NCBI GenBank assembly: GCA_963830235.1
Contig: CAWHLR010000026.1
Span: 4,792-68,791, forward strand
Origin: an uncultured Verrucomicrobiae bacterium
Lineage (GTDB): Bacteria > Verrucomicrobiota > Verrucomicrobiia > Limisphaerales > UBA11358
DNA: 64,000 bases
Direction of reading: 5' to 3'
The position numbers and the translations under genes were made by a program. The notes under the pieces were generated by a model, which made no database searches, was not told the origin of the DNA, and worked only from the letters and a program-made list of their open reading frames with translations. How positions within the stretch are numbered: position 1 is the first letter of the stretch; each line of letters starts with the position of its first letter. Below are positions 26,405 to 54,929 of this stretch, one piece after another.

Positions 26405-28771
26405 ATGAAAAGGGTTCTGGCGCCAATCTTCTGGCTGCTGCTTGCACTGGCCGGCGCGGACGCCTATGCCACGCTGGCGTTTCGCCGGAGCGAGCCGGTC
26501 AATTCAGCCTATATTCTCATCGCGGCGGTCTGCACCTATGCCATCGGCTACCGGTTTTATTCCAAATGGATTGCCGCGCGCGTGCTCACGCTCAATGACC
26601 GCCGCGCCACGCCATGCGAAGTCCACGACGACGGCAAGGATTTCGTGAGAACGAACAAATGGGTTGTCTTTGGCCATCATTTCGCGGCCATTGCCGGGCC
26701 GGGACCGCTGGTCGGGCCGGTGCTGGCGGCGCAATTCGGTTACCTGCCTGGCACACTGTGGATTTTAATCGGCGCCGTGCTCGGCGGCACGGTGCAGGAT
26801 TTCGTCATCTTGTTTTGCTCGATGCGGCGGGATGGCAAATCGCTCGGCCAGATGGTCAAGGAGGAATTGAATTCGCCGGTTGGCTTCATCGCGGGGCTGG
26901 CGATCCTGGCCATTCTGGTGATTATGCTCGCAGTCCTCGCACTCGTTGTGGTCAAGGCTCTCGCGGAAAGTCCGTGGGGTATTTTCACCGTTGGCGCAAC
27001 CATTCCCATCGCGTTGTTGATGGGCTGTTACCTGCGTTTCTTGCGCGTCGGAAAGATTCTGGAAGCCTCAGCCTTTGGTGTTACAATGCTGCTGCTCGCG
27101 GTGTGGGGCGGCAAACTGGTCTATGAAAATCCGCACTGGTCGCAGGTCTTTGGACTGCGCGACCTCACGGTTGCCTGGGTCATCATTGGCTACGGCGTCA
27201 TCTCCAGCAGCCTGCCGGTGTGGCTGCTGCTCGCGCCGCGCGATTACCTCAGCACGTTCATGAAACTCGGCACCATCTTCGCGCTCGCCCTCGGCATCCT
27301 GCTGCTCCTGCCCAATTTGCAAATGCCCGCGCTGACGCAATTCATTGACGGTTCCGGCCTGGTCGTGGCCGGAAAGGTTTTTCCGTTCTGCTTCATCACC
27401 ATCGCGTGTGGCGCGATTTCCGGTTTTCACACGCTCATCGCCAGCGGCACGACGCCGAAACTCATCACTCGTGAAGGTTATGCGCGGCCCATCGGTTATG
27501 GCGCGATGTGCTGCGAATCCTTCGTGGCCATCATAGCGATCATTGCCGCCTGCACCCTGGACCCGGGCGTCTATTTCAGCATGAACGTCAAAGGCGATCC
27601 CGCCGCCACCGTGGCCCTGGTCGCCTCGCATGGTTTTCCGGTGACCACCGGCCAGATGGCTGCGCTGGCCCATGAACTCGGCGAGAAAACCCTGTTCGGT
27701 CGCACTGGTGGCGCGGCCACGCTGGCCGTCGGCATGGCGCACATTTTTTCCAAGGCCGTCAACGGCCGCTGGCTCGACCTCTGGTATCACTTCGCCATCA
27801 TGTTTGAGGCGCTGTTCATCCTGACCACGGTGGACGCCGGCACGCGCGTGGGACGTTATCTGATTCAAAGTGTGCTCGGCCGGGTTTGGAAACCCCTGGG
27901 CGACCCGAAATATTTTCTCACCACACCGGTGGCCGCCGCGTTGATGGTAGGCGCGTGGGGATATTTTTTGATTCAAGGCGTGCGTGATCCGCTCGGCGGC
28001 GTCAACTCGCTCTGGCCGCTGTTTGGTATTGCCAACCAGATGCTTGCCGCCATCGCGTTGTGCCTGGCCACAACCGTCATTTTGAAAATGCAGCTTGGAG
28101 CGTCGGCCTCCGGCACGGCACGAATCGAGAAGCCCGCCGTGCCGGAGGCCGACGCTCCAAAACATTTGCCTGCGCTCGCGCTCATCACGTTCATTCCACT
28201 GGTCTGGCTGGCAGCGGTAACATTCACGGCAGGAGTTGAGAAAATTTTCCATCCCGACCCGCGCATCGGATTTCTGGCGCAGGCGCAAAAGCTGGCTGAA
28301 AAAGCACCCGCCTTGCAAAGTGCGCTCACCAACGCGAACGCTGCGGGTGATGCGGCCGCAATTGACACCGCTCAAATAGCATTGCGCGCCAACCGCACGC
28401 TCCGGTTCAACAACCTTCTCGACGCCGCCGTGGCCGGAATTTTTCTGGCTCTGGTCATCGCGATTGTTCTGTTAAGCTTGCGCGAGTGGATTTTGCTGCT
28501 GTCGCGGCGCAAACCGGCGGTGTTGCACGAAACCGGGCCGGTCTGGCTGCCGGATTACGCCGTCGTGGAGGGCGGGCGCAAGTTCAGCGGCGCGGCCGGC
28601 GCCGCCGCCCTGGCCCTGGCGCTGGCGAAGGAATGGTCCGGCGAATCGCATCTGGAACGCGCGCAGCAGCAGCAAACGCAGGCGGTTTGCCAATGCCATT
28701 CCGCGAACGCACAGCAGGTTTACGTCGAAGCCACGGAACAGCGGTTCAACGGTGTGCGGCGGTGTTGTTAA
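26405..28771 (+). CDS. cstA: carbon starvation protein A family transporter with a YbdD/YjiX-like C-terminal tail
   Basis: Polytopic protein with CstA-like blocks (VVFGHHFAAIAGPGPLVGP, ISGFHTLIASGTTPK). The C-terminus ends in ...EQRFNGVRRCC. Confidence 0.85.
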   Translation: MKRVLAPIFWLLLALAGADAYATLAFRRSEPVNSAYILIAAVCTYAIGYRFYSKWIAARVLTLNDRRATPCEVHDDGKDFVRTNKWVVFGHHFAAIAGPGPLVGPVLAAQFGYLPGTLWILIGAVLGGTVQDFVILFCSMRRDGKSLGQMVKEELNSPVGFIAGLAILAILVIMLAVLALVVVKALAESPWGIFTVGATIPIALLMGCYLRFLRVGKILEASAFGVTMLLLAVWGGKLVYENPHWSQVFGLRDLTVAWVIIGYGVISSSLPVWLLLAPRDYLSTFMKLGTIFALALGILLLLPNLQMPALTQFIDGSGLVVAGKVFPFCFITIACGAISGFHTLIASGTTPKLITREGYARPIGYGAMCCESFVAIIAIIAACTLDPGVYFSMNVKGDPAATVALVASHGFPVTTGQMAALAHELGEKTLFGRTGGAATLAVGMAHIFSKAVNGRWLDLWYHFAIMFEALFILTTVDAGTRVGRYLIQSVLGRVWKPLGDPKYFLTTPVAAALMVGAWGYFLIQGVRDPLGGVNSLWPLFGIANQMLAAIALCLATTVILKMQLGASASGTARIEKPAVPEADAPKHLPALALITFIPLVWLAAVTFTAGVEKIFHPDPRIGFLAQAQKLAEKAPALQSALTNANAAGDAAAIDTAQIALRANRTLRFNNLLDAAVAGIFLALVIAIVLLSLREWILLLSRRKPAVLHETGPVWLPDYAVVEGGRKFSGAAGAAALALALAKEWSGESHLERAQQQQTQAVCQCHSANAQQVYVEATEQRFNGVRRCC

Positions 28772-28778
28772 AAAATTT

Positions 28779-29341
28779 GGAGGGCACTGCTTCGTCAGTG
28801 CCCCAACTAAATTAAATTGATGCGGGAATTGCAATCAAACGGAGAAATCGGGCGTAAACATCCCGTTCACCAGCCCGTTTTTCAACAGGGCAATCAAGCG
28901 GTTATTGTCTTTGTCACAGTCAATGCCCACCAACGAAAACCCATCCTTGCCAAAACAGATGTGGCAAACATTGTTCTCACCACGTGGGAGCAGGCTGACA
29001 CGTGGCTGGTTGGACGTTATGTCATCATGCCCGACCACATTCACTTTTTTTGCGCACCGCGTGATGTGTCGGTAAACTTGAAGCGTTGGATGAAGTTCTG
29101 GAAGAGCCAGGTTTCTTTGCGCTGGCCGCGATCCGCCGAACAGCCCGTCTGGCAGCTTGATTTTTGGGACACGCAATTGCGTCGCGGCGAGAGTTATTCG
29201 GAGAAATGGGATTATGTTTGTCGAAACCCCGTGCGAAAAGGCCTTGCGGCAAGGCCGAAAGATTGGCCTTATGCAGGCGAATTGAATGTCCTGTCCTGGC
29301 ACGACAAATGAAATTAGGGCACTGACGAAGCAGTGCCCTCC
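28779..29341 (+). mobile_element. RAYT-like unit: Y1/HUH transposase gene bracketed by perfect inverted hairpin REPs
   Basis: ggagggcactgcttcgtcagtgccc (28779-28803) and its exact reverse complement (29317-29341). Each is itself a hairpin (gggcactg/cagtgccc). Confidence 0.85.
28817..29311 (+). CDS. IS200/Y1-type (REP-associated-like) tyrosine transposase
   Basis: HUH motif MPDHIHFFCAP and Tyr motif WDYVCRNPVRKGL. About 160 aa. Confidence 0.75.
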   Translation: MMRELQSNGEIGRKHPVHQPVFQQGNQAVIVFVTVNAHQRKPILAKTDVANIVLTTWEQADTWLVGRYVIMPDHIHFFCAPRDVSVNLKRWMKFWKSQVSLRWPRSAEQPVWQLDFWDTQLRRGESYSEKWDYVCRNPVRKGLAARPKDWPYAGELNVLSWHDK

Positions 29342-29346
29342 AAAAT

Positions 29347-29919
29347 ATGAAGCTTGGAATTTTTGGCGGCTCGTTTGACCCGGTTCACCTGGGACACCTG
29401 CTCGTCGCGCAGGCGGCGATGGAGGAACTGGGTCTGGACCGGCTGTTTTTCATTCCGGCGGCGCAATCGCCGTTCAAGCCGGAAAACCAGCCTGCGTCCG
29501 CATCCGTCCGGTTGCAATGGCTCCGGCTCGCCCTCGCCGGTAAAACGAATTGTGAAGTGGACGATCAGGAAATCCGCCGGGGCGGTGTTTCCTACACCAT
29601 CGACACCCTGCGTGATTATGCAAGACGATTTCCCAACGCGCATTTGTTTTGCCTCATCGGCGCCGACAACGCGGCCAAGCTCAACGAATGGCGGGAGGCC
29701 GGCGAACTGGCGAAGCTCGCGGAATTTGTCGCGATTCCGCGCCCGGGCGGGGCAACGGCAAACTTCCCGCCGCCGTTTCACGGACGGATGTTGAAAGGTT
29801 TTCCGCTGGGCGTGTCTTCGTCGGAAATCCGCGCGCGGGTGAAGGCCGGTTTGCCGATTGATCATCTTGTGCCGCCGCTGGTGGCCGAGGCGATTGGCAA
29901 TAACCGGCTTTATGTCTGA
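29347..29919 (+). CDS. nadD: nicotinate-nucleotide adenylyltransferase
   Basis: MKLGIFGGSFDPVHLGHL and ISSSEIR-like VSSSEIRARV. Confidence 0.9.
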   Translation: MKLGIFGGSFDPVHLGHLLVAQAAMEELGLDRLFFIPAAQSPFKPENQPASASVRLQWLRLALAGKTNCEVDDQEIRRGGVSYTIDTLRDYARRFPNAHLFCLIGADNAAKLNEWREAGELAKLAEFVAIPRPGGATANFPPPFHGRMLKGFPLGVSSSEIRARVKAGLPIDHLVPPLVAEAIGNNRLYV

Positions 29920-29923
29920 ACTA

Positions 29924-30003
29924 TCGTCCTCCTCCTCGTCCTCGTTCTCGTAATCGAAATTGAACAATCGAGGACGATGGACGAGGACGAGAACGAGGAG
30001 GAT
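29924..30003. repeat. GAGGACG-type periodic repeat with partially complementary arms
   Basis: tcgtcctcctcctcgtcctcgttctcgtaatcg ... atcgaggacgatggacgaggacgagaacgaggaggat. The arm register is imperfect. Confidence 0.6.
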
Positions 30004-30066
30004 TCAGCCCCAAAAATTTATTCGTGTCCATCCGTGTCCATTCGTGGTTATATTCTCCCGGCAACT

Positions 30067-30435
30067 ATGGATTCAAAGAAACTCGCCAAACTCTGCCGCG
30101 ATTATGCGGACAACAAAAAGGCCGAAAACATTGTCATCCTTGACGTGCGTGATTTGTCGTCGGTGACGGATTATTTTGTGATTGCGTCCGGCACGAGCGA
30201 ACCGCATTTGCGCGCCATTGTGGACGAAATCACGGATCGGTTGCGCGACGATCATGGGGTGCGTCCGCGCGCGGTGGATGGCACGGTGCATGGCGCGTGG
30301 GTGGTGCTGGATTTCTTTGACGTGATTGTCCACGTCATGCGGCAGGAGGCGCGCGAGCGTTACGACCTGGAAAGCCTCTGGGGCGACGCGGCGCGGGTGA
30401 AATTGAGGAAGAAATCCAGCCGTAAAAACCTGTAA
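30067..30435 (+). CDS. rsfS: ribosome silencing factor (iojap family)
   Basis: ENIVILDVRDLSSVTDYFVIASGTSEPHLRAI...WVVLDFFDVIVHVM. Confidence 0.9.
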   Translation: MDSKKLAKLCRDYADNKKAENIVILDVRDLSSVTDYFVIASGTSEPHLRAIVDEITDRLRDDHGVRPRAVDGTVHGAWVVLDFFDVIVHVMRQEARERYDLESLWGDAARVKLRKKSSRKNL

Positions 30436-40529: not shown

Positions 40530-40610
40530 GTAGTGGCACAGGCGTCCCGCCTGTGAGTGTCGGAGAAACCGCAAACGAGAAACTCACAGGCAAGATGCCT
40601 GTGCCACTAT
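40530..40610. repeat. REPIN doublet (GTGGCAC family) in-frame inside the kinase (81 nt)
   Basis: GTAGTGGCACAGGCGTCCCGCCTGTGAGT faces ACTCACAGGCAAGATGCCTGTGCCACTAT. It is translated as GSGTGVPPVSVGETANEKLTGKMPVPL. Confidence 0.85.
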
Positions 40611-49249: not shown

Positions 49250-49974
49250 TGGCTGAAGCGAGTTCATCACCGGAAAAAACGGGCCCGCCGGCCAGGAAAA
49301 GAAAATCCGGCGTGATTGTGCCGCACCAGGCGAAGTGGCATCAACGCATCGGCGCGTTTTTGGTGTTCATTTCGTTGCGCACGCTCATGGCCACAGTGCG
49401 CTGCCGTCTGCGCAACCCCTCGGAATTCCTGGCGCCCAACGCCCCCGGCCCGGTGATTGTTTGTTTCTGGCACAACCGGCTGGCGTCCTGCATCAAAGTT
49501 TATGAGAGCTTTCGCAAGCCGCACGCGTCCACCAGGGGCATGGCGGCGCTGATCAGCGCCAGCCGGGACGGCGCGTTTCTCACGGGCATTCTGGAATGGT
49601 TTGGCGTGCAGGCGGTGCGCGGATCCAGCAGCCGGCGCGGCCCGCAGGCGTTGCTCGAACTCACCACCTGGGCCGAGCGCAACTATGACCTGACCATCAC
49701 GCCGGACGGCCCGCGGGGGCCGTGCTACCAGTTTCAGGAGGGCGTGATGTCGCTGGCACAGGTAACGGGTTTGCCGGTGATGCCGATTGCGTTCAACGTG
49801 AATTGGAAACTGCGCGTGAAAAGCTGGGACCGGTTTCAGATTCCGCTGCCCTTTGCCTGTTGTGAAGTCGTCGTCGGCAAGGTCATGCGCGTGCCAGCCG
49901 AAGCCACGGACGCCGAACGCGAGTCGCTGCGTCAACAGCTTGAAGCCGACCTGCGCGCCATTTCCGGCGATTGA
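49249..49974 (+). CDS. DUF374-type lysophospholipid acyltransferase family protein
   Basis: CFWHNRL...ISASRDGAFLTGILEWFGVQAVRGSSSRRG...ITPDGPRGP. Confidence 0.7.
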   Translation: MAEASSSPEKTGPPARKRKSGVIVPHQAKWHQRIGAFLVFISLRTLMATVRCRLRNPSEFLAPNAPGPVIVCFWHNRLASCIKVYESFRKPHASTRGMAALISASRDGAFLTGILEWFGVQAVRGSSSRRGPQALLELTTWAERNYDLTITPDGPRGPCYQFQEGVMSLAQVTGLPVMPIAFNVNWKLRVKSWDRFQIPLPFACCEVVVGKVMRVPAEATDAERESLRQQLEADLRAISGD

Positions 49975-50001
49975 AATTCGGAGGGGCGTCACGGTTCTTG
50001 A

Positions 50002-50033
50002 CACTCAACTTCCAACCCTCAACCCTCAACTCC
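50002..50033. repeat. CTCAACC-type heptamer array just upstream of the priA start
   Basis: cactcaacttccaaccctcaaccctcaactcc, preceded by TTGACA at 49998-50003. Confidence 0.6.
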
Positions 50034-50035
50034 GC

Positions 50036-52978
50036 ATGATTGCCCGCGTCAGTCTTGAAATCGCGCTCCGCAAGGAGTTCGATTATTTGATTCCGCCCGG
50101 ATTGGCGGGGCAAATCGAGGTGGGCAGCCGCGTGCAGGTGCCGTTCGGCCCGCGAAAAATTTTAGGCTGCGTCACCGCGCTCGCCGAGGAATCGGCTCAC
50201 ACCAATCTCAAACCCATTTTGAAAGTCATCGGGGCGCAGACGCTTGTCACGCCGAAGGTTCTGAAGCTTGCGCGCTGGATTGCCGAGTACTACTGCTGCG
50301 CACCGGAAACCGCGTTGAAATCCGTCTTGCCCGAGGCCGTGCGCAAGGAGGAATCCGGCTGGCGCGAGCGGCTGTTTGTCCGCGCGCTGCCGGTGAGCGG
50401 CGAATTTCCGAAGCTGCCGAAACGCCAGCAGGAAGTCTGGAACATCATCGAGGAGCGACGCGAGCTGCCATTGTCGGAACTGGTCGAACTGGCCGAAACC
50501 ACCGCCGCCACCATCCGCAAACTCGAAGACCGCGGACTGCTTGAGGTCGCCCCGCAAATTTCCGAACGCGATCCGTACGCCCGCGAACACATCCTGCCGT
50601 CGCAACCGCTCCCGTTGAACCCGGCACAGGCTGCCGCGCTGGAGAAGATTGAGACGGCTATGAATGGCCGTTGTAGCACCCGCGTCCCGCGGGTGGAGGC
50701 GGGCGTCGCGCCCGCCTCTCGTCCGACAGTCAAGCCCGGCCCGATATGGGAAACCACCGCCCGCAAACGCAGCCTGCCGCATTTTGAAATTCCGGGTTTT
50801 ACCTATCACGTCACCTGGCAAACGCAGGACAAACTGATTCTTTCGCCCGAAGCCCGCGCAAAGACTTTGGAAGCCTGCCATTTCTGGCACGGGAACAAAA
50901 TCAAATGTTACGCCGCGTGTGTAATGCCCGACCATGTTCATTTGCTGATTCAACCTTTGCCGGTTCAGGAAGCCGGGAAAGAAGGCGTTCATCCGCTCTC
51001 GGAAATTCTTCACAGCATCAAATCATTTTCCGCCCATGAGGTGAACAAGGCCATGAAACGCAGCGGTCCGGTCTGGATGGATGAATCGTTTGACCGGATG
51101 ATCCGTTCGGAGGCCGACTTGCACAAGACGTGGGATTACATCTGGAACAATCCGCGCAGGATTGGATTGGTTGGACCAATGGAGGAATATCCTTACCTTT
51201 GGACGCCAACCGCACCCGACACACCCCAAGGTGTCCGGCGCGACGCCGGACACGACCCGCGGGACGCGGGTGCTACACCACAGACATCGGACGGCGCAAA
51301 GTCATCTCAAGTTTTCCTGCTTCATGGAGTGACCGGCAGCGGCAAAACCGAGGTTTATCTGCAAGCCCTCGCCCACGCGCTCGAACAGGGCAAGGGCGCC
51401 ATTGTGCTTGTGCCGGAGATTTCGCTCACGCCGCAGACCGTCGAGCGGTTTAAAGCACGTTTCAGCTCCGGCAAACTCCAGACGCTTGTTGCCGTGCTGC
51501 ACAGCCACCTGTCCGCCGGCGAACGTCACGATGAATGGCACAAAATCCGCCAGGGCCGCGCACGCATCGTCATCGGCGCGCGCTCGGCGATTTTTGCGCC
51601 GGTTGAACCGCTCGGCCTCATCATCGTGGACGAGGAACACGAGCACTCTTACAAGCAGGAGGAGGCGCCGCGCTACCACGCCCGCGACGTGGCCATCATG
51701 CGTGGCCAGATGGAAAACGCCGTCGTCGTGCTCGGTTCGGCCACGCCGTCGCTGGAAAGTTATTACAATTGCAAGAAGGGCAAATTCACGCTGCTCGAAC
51801 TGCCGGAGCGCGTGGACGACCAGAAAATGCCGCACGTCCGGGTCGTGGACATGCGGCAAGCCGCGTCCCAGCAGCGCGGAAAGGAAGGCATCCCGATTTT
51901 TTCGCCGCAACTCAAGGAAGCCATCACCCAGCGGCTCGAACGCGGCGAGCAGACGATTTTGTTTTTGAACCGGCGCGGTTATTCGACGTCGCTGCAATGC
52001 CCGAAGTGCGGCGAGGTTGTTCAGTGTCCGAATTGCAGCCTCGCGCTCACGTTTCACCGGCAGGAACAAAAGCTCGCCTGTCACATCTGCGGCCACGTCG
52101 CGCCCGTGCCGTCGGTTTGCCCAAATGCGAAATGCAAAAACCCGGCGATCCGTTTTGCCGGCACGGGCACGCAGCGGGTCGAGGAAACGCTTGCCAAGCT
52201 TTTCCCGCAGGCGCGCATCAAGCGCATGGACGCCGACACGATGAAACGCAAGGACGATTACCGGAAGGTGCTCGGCGATTTCCGCACGGGCAAAACCGAC
52301 ATCCTCGTCGGCACACAGATGATCGCCAAGGGGCTGCATTTCCCGAACGTCACGCTCGTCGGCATCATTTACGCCGACCTCGCGCTGCATCAGCCGGATT
52401 TTCGCGCGGGCGAACGGACCTTCCAACTGCTCACGCAAGTCGCCGGACGGGCCGGGCGCGGGGATGTCGAGGGCGAGGTGTTCGTGCAGGCATTCGCGCC
52501 ATTTCATCCGGCGATTCAATATGCGCGCCGCCACGACTTCACCGGCTTTTATGAACAGGAAATTGAATTCCGCGAGCAACTGAAATATCCGCCCGTCAGC
52601 CGCGTGGCGTTGCTCACGCTCAAGGGCCGCAACGAAGACAAGGTGAAATTTAGCGCCGAACACCTGAAACGGGAGCTGGAGAAAAATCTTGTGGCGGCGG
52701 TCTGTGACCGCCGCCAATCAGATGAAAAGAATGCAACTGCAAAAAACAAGGATAGTGCGGCGGTCACAGACCGCCGCTACAGCTTCGGTGATTTAATCAT
52801 CGCCGGTCCGGCGCCGGCGCCGTTGCTGCGCGCGGAAACTTTTTATCGGTACCAGATCATGCTGCGGACGCGCGCGATGAGCAAATTGAGCCAGGCCCTG
52901 GCAAAAATCATTGGGACGCTTGCCCTACCGGATGACGTGACCCTGGCGGTGGACATTGACCCGGTTAATTTGGGGTAG
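50036..52978 (+). CDS. priA: primosomal protein N' (replication restart helicase) carrying two in-frame insertions
   Basis: N-terminal ARVSLEIALRKEFDYLIP...VQVPFGPRKILG, Walker A HGVTGSGKTEVY, DEEH box IIVDEEHE, and the Cys cluster CPKCGEVVQCPNCSLALTFH...CHICGH. Confidence 0.9.
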   Translation: MIARVSLEIALRKEFDYLIPPGLAGQIEVGSRVQVPFGPRKILGCVTALAEESAHTNLKPILKVIGAQTLVTPKVLKLARWIAEYYCCAPETALKSVLPEAVRKEESGWRERLFVRALPVSGEFPKLPKRQQEVWNIIEERRELPLSELVELAETTAATIRKLEDRGLLEVAPQISERDPYAREHILPSQPLPLNPAQAAALEKIETAMNGRCSTRVPRVEAGVAPASRPTVKPGPIWETTARKRSLPHFEIPGFTYHVTWQTQDKLILSPEARAKTLEACHFWHGNKIKCYAACVMPDHVHLLIQPLPVQEAGKEGVHPLSEILHSIKSFSAHEVNKAMKRSGPVWMDESFDRMIRSEADLHKTWDYIWNNPRRIGLVGPMEEYPYLWTPTAPDTPQGVRRDAGHDPRDAGATPQTSDGAKSSQVFLLHGVTGSGKTEVYLQALAHALEQGKGAIVLVPEISLTPQTVERFKARFSSGKLQTLVAVLHSHLSAGERHDEWHKIRQGRARIVIGARSAIFAPVEPLGLIIVDEEHEHSYKQEEAPRYHARDVAIMRGQMENAVVVLGSATPSLESYYNCKKGKFTLLELPERVDDQKMPHVRVVDMRQAASQQRGKEGIPIFSPQLKEAITQRLERGEQTILFLNRRGYSTSLQCPKCGEVVQCPNCSLALTFHRQEQKLACHICGHVAPVPSVCPNAKCKNPAIRFAGTGTQRVEETLAKLFPQARIKRMDADTMKRKDDYRKVLGDFRTGKTDILVGTQMIAKGLHFPNVTLVGIIYADLALHQPDFRAGERTFQLLTQVAGRAGRGDVEGEVFVQAFAPFHPAIQYARRHDFTGFYEQEIEFREQLKYPPVSRVALLTLKGRNEDKVKFSAEHLKRELEKNLVAAVCDRRQSDEKNATAKNKDSAAVTDRRYSFGDLIIAGPAPAPLLRAETFYRYQIMLRTRAMSKLSQALAKIIGTLALPDDVTLAVDIDPVNLG
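50673..51276 (+). mobile_element. RAYT-like Y1/HUH transposase module with inverted GTAG-REP flanks, embedded in-frame in priA
   Basis: GTAGCACCCGCGTCCCGCGGGTG (50673-50695) faces ACCCGCGGGACGCGGGTGCTAC (51255-51276). Inner hairpins sit at 50696-50718 and 51231-51253. The segment encodes PDHVHLLIQP and WDYIWNNPRRIGL. Confidence 0.8.
52691..52780. repeat. REPIN doublet (GCGGCGGTC-TGT-GACCGCCGC family) in-frame inside priA (90 nt)
   Basis: GTGGCGGCGGTCTGTGACCGCCGCC faces GCGGCGGTCACAGACCGCCGCTAC. It is translated as VAAVCDRRQSDEKNATAKNKDSAAVTDRRYS. Confidence 0.85.
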
Positions 52979-53082: not shown

Positions 53083-53128
53083 GAATTCGGCGGGACGCCG
53101 AATTCAACCCGCGAGACGCGGGTGCTAC
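53083..53128. repeat. bipartite REP, same family as the priA RAYT flank
   Basis: gaattcggcg-gga-cgccgaattc followed by ACCCGCGAGACGCGGGTGCTAC. It overlaps the 3' end of the gene at 53125-53520. Confidence 0.8.
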
Positions 53129-53520
53129 CGCATAATTTCCGAGGTGCTTGCGTTGCCGGTCAATTTGATTTGAGCGATGCGGCGTTCGTATTCCTCGGCG
53201 CTGACTTCGCGTGGGATCGCGTGGCAAACTTTTTCAAAGCCGGGGAATTTCCAGAGGTTCGGAAAATCGCGGCACTGCTGGGGTTTCACGGATTGCACGG
53301 CGCAGTCGTTGCCCTCCAGGAAAATGCATCCGCCATCCGGCTTTTCCTGCAAGGCCAGGCCGCCGCGATCCCAGCGCAGCCGCGTGAATTGCTGGATGAA
53401 ATCGGATTCGCTCAAGCCCTTGAACGCGGCGAGCCGGGTGATTTCCGCCTCCGTCAAACGCACCTGCCCCGGCCAGCGGCAGCAGGCCGTGCAACGTTGA
53501 CATTCAAGAAAAATCGGCAC
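53125..53520 (-). CDS. YkgJ-family (CxxCxxCC) cysteine-cluster protein
   Basis: CQRCTACCRWPG ... GGCIFLEGNDCAV ... PQQCRDFP. Confidence 0.75.
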   Translation of the reverse strand: MPIFLECQRCTACCRWPGQVRLTEAEITRLAAFKGLSESDFIQQFTRLRWDRGGLALQEKPDGGCIFLEGNDCAVQSVKPQQCRDFPNLWKFPGFEKVCHAIPREVSAEEYERRIAQIKLTGNASTSEIMR

Positions 53521-54369: not shown

Positions 54370-54427
54370 GTAGCCGCGTTTGTAAAAACGCGGAAAATAG
54401 CGCCGCGCTCTTACGAGACGCGGCTAC
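54370..54427. repeat. REPIN doublet (GTAGCCGCG family)
   Basis: GTAGCCGCGTTTGTAAAAACGCGG faces GCCGCGCTCTTACGAGACGCGGCTAC. Confidence 0.8.
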
Positions 54428-54428
54428 A

Positions 54429-54929
54429 TCATTTGACCGCGTCACGCGGAACGATTTTAATGCTGACGATGCCCATGCGTTTGTCGGGCCGGTCCTGCGG
54501 ATGCGTGGGCGTGGTGCCGATTTTTTCCAAAACGTCATCGCCTTTGATCAGCTTGCCGAACGTGGTGTATTGACGGTCGAGAAATGTCGGGTCGCCGTGG
54601 CAGATGAAAAACTGGCTGCCGGCGGAATCAGGATGGTTGGAGCGCGCCATGGAAATGACGCCGCGCGTGTGCGAACGGTCGTTGAACTCGGCCTTGATGG
54701 TATGGCCCGGCCCGCCCGTGCCCCACATGCTTTCCTTGGCCGGATCCTTGGTCAGCGGGTCGCCGCCTTGAATCATGAATCCCGGAATCACGCGGTGGAA
54801 ACACGTGCCGTCGTAAAAGCCCTTGTTGGCCAGCGTCTTGAAATTCTCGACGGTTTTGGGCGCGACCTCCGGCCAGAATTCGATGACCATTTCGCCTTCG
54901 GTGGTGGTGATGACAGCAACTTCGTTCAT
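54429..54929 (-). CDS. ppiB: cytoplasmic cyclophilin-type peptidyl-prolyl isomerase
   Basis: FHRVIPGFMIQGGDP...SMARSNHPDSAGSQFFI. Confidence 0.9.
   Translation of the reverse strand: MNEVAVITTTEGEMVIEFWPEVAPKTVENFKTLANKGFYDGTCFHRVIPGFMIQGGDPLTKDPAKESMWGTGGPGHTIKAEFNDRSHTRGVISMARSNHPDSAGSQFFICHGDPTFLDRQYTTFGKLIKGDDVLEKIGTTPTHPQDRPDKRMGIVSIKIVPRDAVK

Follow-up and report, generated by a model that had tools for sequence, protein, structure and literature searches.

A probable REPtron between cstA and nadD in an uncultured Verrucomicrobiae bacterium, and a family of REP hairpins dispersed in related genomes

RAYTs (REP-associated tyrosine transposases) have been described as single-copy genes which are inherited vertically and show a housekeeping-like evolution (PMC5581495). 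The use of the term REPtron follows Ton-Hoang 2012 (PMC3333891) and Corneloup 2021 (PMC8266576), and doublets are called REPIN-like sensu Bertels and Rainey. The best match in both sequence and fold for the unit described below is the E. coli K-12 REPtron (RAYT group 2; 4ER8; PMC3333891, PMC3479197, PMC8266576), with the same HUH/Y1 fold. As in E. coli, the gene lies between inverted REP hairpins, the REP family is dispersed (here in related genomes) as singlets and inverted doublets, and the gene is found at a single locus, is vertically inherited and is present in some relatives and absent from others. Unlike E. coli TnpA-REP, to which it is about 21% identical, the protein comes from a different phylum. 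The REP also differs from that of E. coli in having the head TGGAGGG instead of GTAG and a perfect 8-bp stem with a 6-nt loop and no AA/GC bulge, and the REP density appears to be much lower here.

The REPtron Sm of S. maltophilia (RAYT group 3; PMC8266576) resembles the present unit in REP architecture, as a perfect 8-bp palindrome directly follows a conserved tetranucleotide. In REPtron Sm the stem shape and the loop matter, and mutations in the head are tolerated for binding (PMC8266576). Its head is GTAG and its loop 3 nt, whereas TGGA(GGG) and an invariant 6-nt CTTCGT loop are found here. The REPINs of P. fluorescens SBW25 (PMC3116915, PMC3337134) are likewise inverted REP pairs, from a few to tens of nt apart, and the single-copy RAYT is flanked by the same REP. 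The sequences are unrelated, however; the doublet halves of the present family often differ in the stem (GGGCACTG with GGGAAGCG), and its abundance is probably lower. TIRYT genes and TIRtrons (PMC3733652) are comparable in that a RAYT-like gene is placed within non-GTAG inverted repeats of a moderately abundant family. By their description, published TIRs are long and share the motif GGGGWSAS, which was not seen here, and the present flanks are short REP-like hairpins. Finally, the TnpA transposases of the IS200/IS605 family (IS608, ISDra2) have the same catalytic fold and motifs and recognize hairpins on single-stranded DNA. Unlike these elements, the unit is confined to a single locus with no near-identical second copies, and its hairpins are identical and inverted.

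The unit was found in a 64,000-nucleotide stretch of DNA, which was analysed as a whole and is called the window. The features of the locus are:

26405-28771, plus strand: cstA, the upstream boundary of the spacer (the ORF end includes the stop)
28776-28803, plus strand: left REP, head TTTGGA, then GGGCACTG-CTTCGT-CAGTGCCC; exact inverted repeat
28820-29311, plus strand: RAYT gene, 163 aa (NF047646, 4er8_A, predicted fold)
29317-29344, minus strand: right REP, exact reverse complement of the left REP
29347-29919, plus strand: nadD, the downstream boundary of the spacer (TIGR00482, 160 bits)
29977-30435, plus strand: rsfS, 3' of nadD (TIGR00090, 114 bits)

The unit at 28776-29344 is very probably a REPtron, i.e. 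a domesticated HUH/Y1 RAYT (TnpA-REP) gene between two inverted cognate REPs. The evidence for this consists of its anatomy, family, fold, purifying selection, synteny and empty sites, together with REP dispersal and stem covariation, which were observed in related genomes. As cstA ends at 28771 and the ATG of nadD is at 29347, the REP-RAYT-REP unit fills the cstA-nadD spacer. The identity of both neighbours, proposed in an earlier note on this DNA, was confirmed by profiles, in the case of cstA with a score for model NF011590 of 736 bits, which is under the model's cut-off of 1188 bits; Pfam CstA is present in the CstA proteins of orthologous loci.

The earlier note had described perfect 25-nt inverted flanks around the ORF, each with a hairpin, the right one ending 5 nt before the nadD ATG. 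The 25-mer GGAGGGCACTGCTTCGTCAGTGCCC was indeed found at 28779-28803 on the plus strand and its exact reverse complement at 29317-29341, in agreement with the spacing given to nadD; an inverted pair of this kind occurred in none of 100 shuffles. The exact inverted repeat is even longer, 28 nt (28776-28803 and 29317-29344), and complementarity reaches 38 nt at 89%. Folding produced a separate hairpin for each arm, GGGCACTG-CTTCGT-CAGTGCCC, with a stem of 8-9 bp and a loop of 6 nt. As single-stranded DNA the arms have folding energies of -9 to -10 kcal/mol (z = -3.4 to -5.7), with -9.1 kcal/mol (z = -3.75) for the left REP and -9.9 kcal/mol (z = -5.7) for the right REP. The left REP begins 5 nt past the cstA stop with its head facing away from the RAYT gene. 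The head of the right REP reads CCCTCCAAA on the plus strand and finishes 2 nt short of the nadD ATG, and in orthologous loci the right REP likewise abuts the nadD start. Because the stem is a palindrome, the true inversion of the two REPs is visible from the loop and the TTTGGA head only; in direct orientation their similarity is 74%. No third copy of the 25-mer was detected in the 64-kb window, even when 3 mismatches or a relaxed pattern with a free stem were allowed, so that its reported absence elsewhere in the window holds. The window thus contains two copies of this REP, both flanking the RAYT gene, and the pair spanning the gene is its only doublet of this REP; the dispersed copies described below are those of related genomes.

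The REP head (28778-28784 and 29336-29342) includes GGAGG, the Shine-Dalgarno consensus. For the REP in front of nadD, it is the complement CCUCC which is found 5 nt upstream of the ATG. A Shine-Dalgarno sequence for nadD was not visible in any relative. That the REP head next to nadD might affect translation is pure speculation.

The ORF comprises 164 codons when read from the alternative start TTG at 28817, as given in the earlier note. The ATG at 28820 is the more likely start, since all orthologues are 163 aa long from that methionine. The HUH and tyrosine motifs that had been noticed correspond to H73-I-H75 and to Y132 as the catalytic tyrosine, and these three residues are invariant in an alignment of 56 homologues. 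The interpretation depended on the ORF matching Y1-transposase profiles. A score of 99.4 bits was obtained with the NCBIfam equivalog NF047646 (REP-associated tyrosine transposase; cut-off 80). The NCBIfam IS200 model NF033573 failed (13.6 bits, cut-off 55), and Pfam Y1_Tnp was sub-threshold (16.7 bits, cut-off 23). The sole significant PDB sequence match was 4er8_A, E. coli TnpA-REP (E = 7e-8), in which H73-I-H75 is paired with the PEHMH motif, and Y132 with the tyrosine of DYIYINPV. An AlphaFold2 model (pLDDT 88.3, pTM 0.82) gave 4er8_A as the top Foldseek hit (E = 7.6e-8, TM 0.61), followed at ranks 2-30 by IS200/IS605 TnpA proteins. By profile, sequence and predicted fold, the ORF between the hairpins is thus assigned to the RAYTs rather than to IS200.

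The flanking REPs belong to a family with the pattern TGGAGGGCAnnG-CTTCGT-CnnTGCCC, called the TGGAGGGCAnnGCTTCGTCnnTGCCC family here. A count of the 25-mer beyond the window had been suggested earlier. A scan with the pattern GGARGGCANNGCTTCGTCNNTGCC, in one genome per species and with about 2 matches expected by chance (own estimate), revealed that its family is dispersed in related genomes, with at least 116 stretches, almost all from Verrucomicrobiota. The groups represented include Limisphaerales, Chthoniobacterales/Terrimicrobiaceae, Opitutales (Cerasicoccus, Pelagicoccus) and Verrucomicrobiales. There are several stretches per genome, up to 8 from one genome among the matches listed, which is a lower bound. 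Among the same matches a RAYT homologue was present within the 8-kb piece in 6 of 116 cases and missing in 110, and the scarcity of RAYTs so close to the REPs indicates that the family is dispersed. The REP density appears to be low compared with E. coli or Pseudomonas. Adjacent REPs are in +/- orientation in 34 of the 35 pairs among the matches listed, with gaps of 7-60 nt, and these doublets of related genomes have a REPIN-like arrangement.

The family consensus is TGGAGGGCA-n-y-G CTTCGT C-r-n-TGCCc. Across 160 copies the head was TGGA followed by GGG, and the GTAG tetranucleotide, found at the 5' foot of the palindrome in the GTAG-tagged REP superfamily (PMC3733652), was absent. The T preceding GGAGGG is 87% conserved, even though it lies outside the scan pattern. 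The two stem positions left free by the pattern were Watson-Crick complementary in 115 of 129 copies, with 10 different pair types (chance about 6%). Orthologous loci in metagenomes (RAYT identity 70-91%) have 1-4 REPs to the left and 1-3 to the right of the RAYT gene. Their loop is always CTTCGT and their stems carry paired changes (CACTG/CAGTG, CATTG/CAATG, CAGCG/CGCTG and CATCG/CGATG). The REPs were less often located in coding sequence than random sites. When all stop-free frames of 200 codons or more were counted, the values were 49% and 80%, respectively; this test is too permissive in GC-rich DNA and was repeated with a GC3 filter, which placed 37% of the REPs and 74% of random sites in supported ORFs. 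The use of stop-to-stop frames makes the comparison crude. Distant RAYTs (56-61% identity) occupy other loci. At two of the three examined (L208, L210) the flanks are related GGAGGG-headed doublets with the loops CTCCGT or CTCTG, and from these it appears that the RAYT clade and the REP family travel together; no flanking REP was recognized at the third locus (L211).

The same REP pattern was seen in MAGs labelled Acidobacteriota, Limnocylindrales, Spirochaetota and one betaproteobacterium (L025, L036, L040, L063-L065, L087, L090, L098, L109, L125), which may reflect either mis-binned Verrucomicrobiota contigs or genuine spread. In another set of loci (L001 6560-6650; the same in L002-L006, L141, L143, L150 and L111), the RAYT-proximal REP of the right flank is cut after GACGAAGCAG. 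It is followed by a 44-nt segment with a variant REP in opposite orientation and then by a repeat of the 17-nt GGGCACTGACGAAGYAG. The arrangement resembles an insertion within the REP stem or the product of a template switch, and it may preserve a trace of REP processing.

By analogy with the TnpA-REP proteins of E. coli, S. maltophilia and Marinomonas, the RAYT protein would bind one strand of the REP, folded as a DNA hairpin. The features recognized would be the conserved head (TGGA/GGG) on the 5' side, the CTTCGT loop, which is invariant, and the stem by its shape, any complementary stem being accepted. The constant head and loop and the free, covarying stem fit such a model. Tyr132 and a metal bound by H73/H75 would cleave and rejoin the DNA beside the hairpin, and in this way REPs would multiply across the genome as singlets and as +/- doublets (REPINs). 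On this reading the RAYT gene itself does not move; it has resided in the cstA-nadD spacer since before these lineages diverged, and most relatives have lost or replaced it. Single-strand binding, the cleavage chemistry, the bases read and current activity in the source genome are what we infer from this analogy and from the literature model of RAYT/REP systems (PMC8266576, PMC3333891, PMC3479197, PMC5581495). In published systems, the GTAG located 5' of the palindrome helps to choose the cleavage site (PMC8266576, PMC3479197), and it is essential for E. coli TnpA-REP (PMC8266576). The tetranucleotide of the present REPs is TGGA (or GGAG), and the cleavage dinucleotide should therefore differ, if the same logic applies.

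The history of the site was followed in every displayed contig for P0002, P0005 and P0014 and in every tblastn match. RAYT homologues at 68-91% identity were seen only between cstA and nadD, and the window has one RAYT copy of the present clade. Compared with its orthologues, the RAYT gene had a dN/dS of 0.14-0.23, and nadD had 0.10-0.15. The dS values are of the same order, 0.30-0.36 for RAYT and 0.26-0.50 for nadD; the rows of L048 and L007 were left out of the dN/dS comparison, as their nadD extraction was partial or frameshifted. Judged by these sequences, the RAYT is under purifying selection and evolves in a housekeeping-like manner. The comparable dS of the two genes and the fact that RAYT clusters mirror those of nadD argue that the RAYT is old at the cstA-nadD site.

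A survey of 80 metagenomic contigs with NadD 78-95% identical showed a patchy distribution. The RAYT gene was present in 7 contigs, and the other 73 had neither the gene nor any copy of the REP hairpin. The empty site, for which a comparison of this junction in related genomes had been proposed, was found at 28 loci and consists of the cstA TGA, 6 nt and the nadD ATG. Other spacers hold a GTAG-headed doublet, GTAGCCGCGAACGTGAGTTCGCGGC and its inverse, or another doublet, GTGGGACAGGCATCTTGCCTGTCTCC and its inverse, and further palindromes are found in the spacers of more distant relatives. At the junctions inspected, the three filling types follow a TAA stop, except in L145 (type B, TGA), and the empty ones follow TGA. 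In an alignment, homology is lost exactly at the cstA stop and regained at the nadD ATG. Loci with nadD 97-98% identical nevertheless differ in their filling (L141 vs L138, L001 vs L140), and RAYT-positive loci are scattered on a neighbour-joining tree of nadD, which is a short tree without bootstrap support. Apart from this stop-codon pattern, a comparison of filled and empty spacers gave no convincing target-site duplication and no fixed target motif where the unit begins and ends. The RAYT reads as an old resident which was repeatedly deleted, or replaced by recombination through the conserved flanks; re-insertion of the unit is a possible alternative to loss and replacement. The patchy pattern matches the REPtron deletions reported for E. 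coli strains in a passage of PMC3733652 that cites PMC3333891.

The region in front of nadD has further peculiarities. At least three unrelated families of palindromic doublets occupy the 70-130 nt in front of nadD in L130, L132-L149 and others, and in L162-L207 long palindromes precede nadD as well, even where the upstream gene is not cstA. Hairpin elements could have a hotspot in the nadD-upstream spacer, or a hairpin before nadD could be selected for. A GTAG-type REP doublet, gtagccgcgtttgtgaaaacgcgg...ccgcgaactcacgttcgcggctac, lies within the coding sequence of cstA near its 3' end, about 130-190 nt ahead of the stop, in L136, L138 and L141. It is common to L141, which has the RAYT, and L138, which has not; L001, L140 and the window lack it. 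Two orthologues deviate from the others. In MAG SMAG_U6377 (L029 6730-7220) the RAYT appears frameshifted, with three tblastn segments, although this MAG has 7 or more REP stretches. The orthologue in a contig from an Acidiferrales bin (L125 5120-5611) has PGLIH in place of PDHIH. These defects may be due to decay, assembly error or mis-binning.

A role of the hairpins as plain terminators or regulatory stem-loops for cstA and nadD, with an incidental ORF between them, is highly improbable. The hairpins do lie directly after the cstA stop and before the nadD start, and a terminator scan called both, on the minus strand only. However, neither hairpin is followed by a T-run on the plus strand, the strand of all three genes, and T-rich tails are found on the minus strand only, which has no gene end there. 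A bidirectional terminator which is also present in relatives lacking the ORF had been named in the earlier note as the observation that would speak against a RAYT unit. All 73 of these nadD relatives were without the hairpins too. Together with the absent T-run on the coding strand, this argues against an ordinary terminator predating the gene, a reading that was regarded as refuted. Furthermore, the same hairpin is dispersed at more than 100 other places, and the ORF is a conserved RAYT under purifying selection. An Rfam match of the hairpin region to CsrB was sub-threshold and was taken as chance. An orphan or relic REPtron, in which a genuine RAYT is flanked by the sole REP copies of this genome, is quite unlikely. 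The REPs would then never have expanded, or would have decayed, and the protein would be retained for a host function unrelated to REP spread. The lack of additional copies within the 64 kb is in line with this, as is the finding of only one extra copy (L141 at 7464) in the contigs around nadD from close relatives, about 400 kb in total, and REPtrons are known from species without a matching REP family (Di Nocera 2013, PMC3733652). On the other hand, a minimum of 4 additional REP loci was counted in each of the closest MAGs with an orthologous RAYT at the cstA-nadD site (CAVUVT and JBAVOO, 85-87% identity). The two flanking copies match exactly over 28 nt, and the number of flanking REPs varies among orthologous loci, which points to ongoing REP turnover.

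Insertion of REP-RAYT-REP as one unit, possibly repeatedly, in the manner of a mobile cassette or an autonomous IS200/IS605-like element, is very unlikely. Such insertion would explain the presence or absence of the gene in the L141/L138 and L001/L140 pairs, the break of homology exactly at the spacer edges, the other palindromic doublets in the same spacer and the scattered RAYT-positive loci. The tree behind this last point is the short one without bootstrap support, though, and the patchiness is explained equally well by repeated loss or allelic replacement through homologous flanks. Close RAYT homologues (68-91%) were never found at a second site, and a RAYT dS as large as that of nadD, with clusters mirroring those of nadD, speaks for a gene that is old at the site. 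The ends of IS200/IS605 elements lie on the same strand. The present hairpins are inverted, the IS200 profile failed as described above, and no tnpB is present. The spacer could also be a landing pad for hairpin elements, at which the RAYT unit arrived like a giant REPIN with its own transposase. This is unlikely. From the cstA stop to the nadD ATG, four kinds of filling are met in close relatives, namely none, two unrelated REPIN-like doublets and REP-RAYT-REP. If the giant-REPIN reading were true, a RAYT would have been caught still acting as a mobile element, and its clade would be one whose guide head is not GTAG (TGGA/GGAGG) and whose loop is conserved phylum-wide. The preferred reading remains that of a resident REPtron.

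A second RAYT in the window is of a different kind. The priA ORF at 49853-52978 (plus strand, 1041 aa) scores 638 bits with PriA TIGR00595, and its aa 310-448 also match NF047646 (82.4 bits, cut-off 80). The RAYT insert at 50672-51277 is 606 nt, exactly 202 codons, in frame and without a stop. Its borders are formed by a 41-nt inverted repeat whose hairpins are GTAG-headed. The earlier note had counted two RAYT/REP pairs in the window, each with a REP of its own, and this stands, as the REP at priA is GTAG-headed and the REP at cstA-nadD is not. An architecture of PriA, Y1_Tnp and helicase is also found in relatives at 60-84% identity; most PriA homologues are without it. A RAYT fused into the replication-restart helicase looks far more unusual than the RAYT at cstA-nadD. 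A reverse-complement copy of the priA REP core is located just downstream of priA (53117). Further GTAG-headed REP-like hairpins were seen at 52975, 53083-53130, 54370-54430 (a doublet), 8177, 34678 and 40537-40603, and on this account the GTAG-type family seems to be commoner in the window than the TGGAGGG family.

In the published RAYT/REPIN literature searched, no description of a TGGAGGG/CTTCGT REP family was found. The one remark on Verrucomicrobiota in the RAYT/REPIN papers searched is that GTAG repeats are abundant in Opitutus terrae (PMC3733652). For the field, the findings at cstA-nadD are nothing unexpected, and the unit is an ordinary yet intact example of a known system. It adds a documented RAYT/REP system from Verrucomicrobiota to the known kind. 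It is set apart from the described REPtrons by its non-GTAG head, its perfect 8-bp stem with an invariant 6-nt loop and its apparently low density. Several orders of the phylum share the head and the loop, and the stem changes by compensatory substitutions, which leads to clear predictions of what the protein reads. Near-identical strains with and without the RAYT could serve as a natural test of the proposed dependence of REPIN populations on their RAYT.
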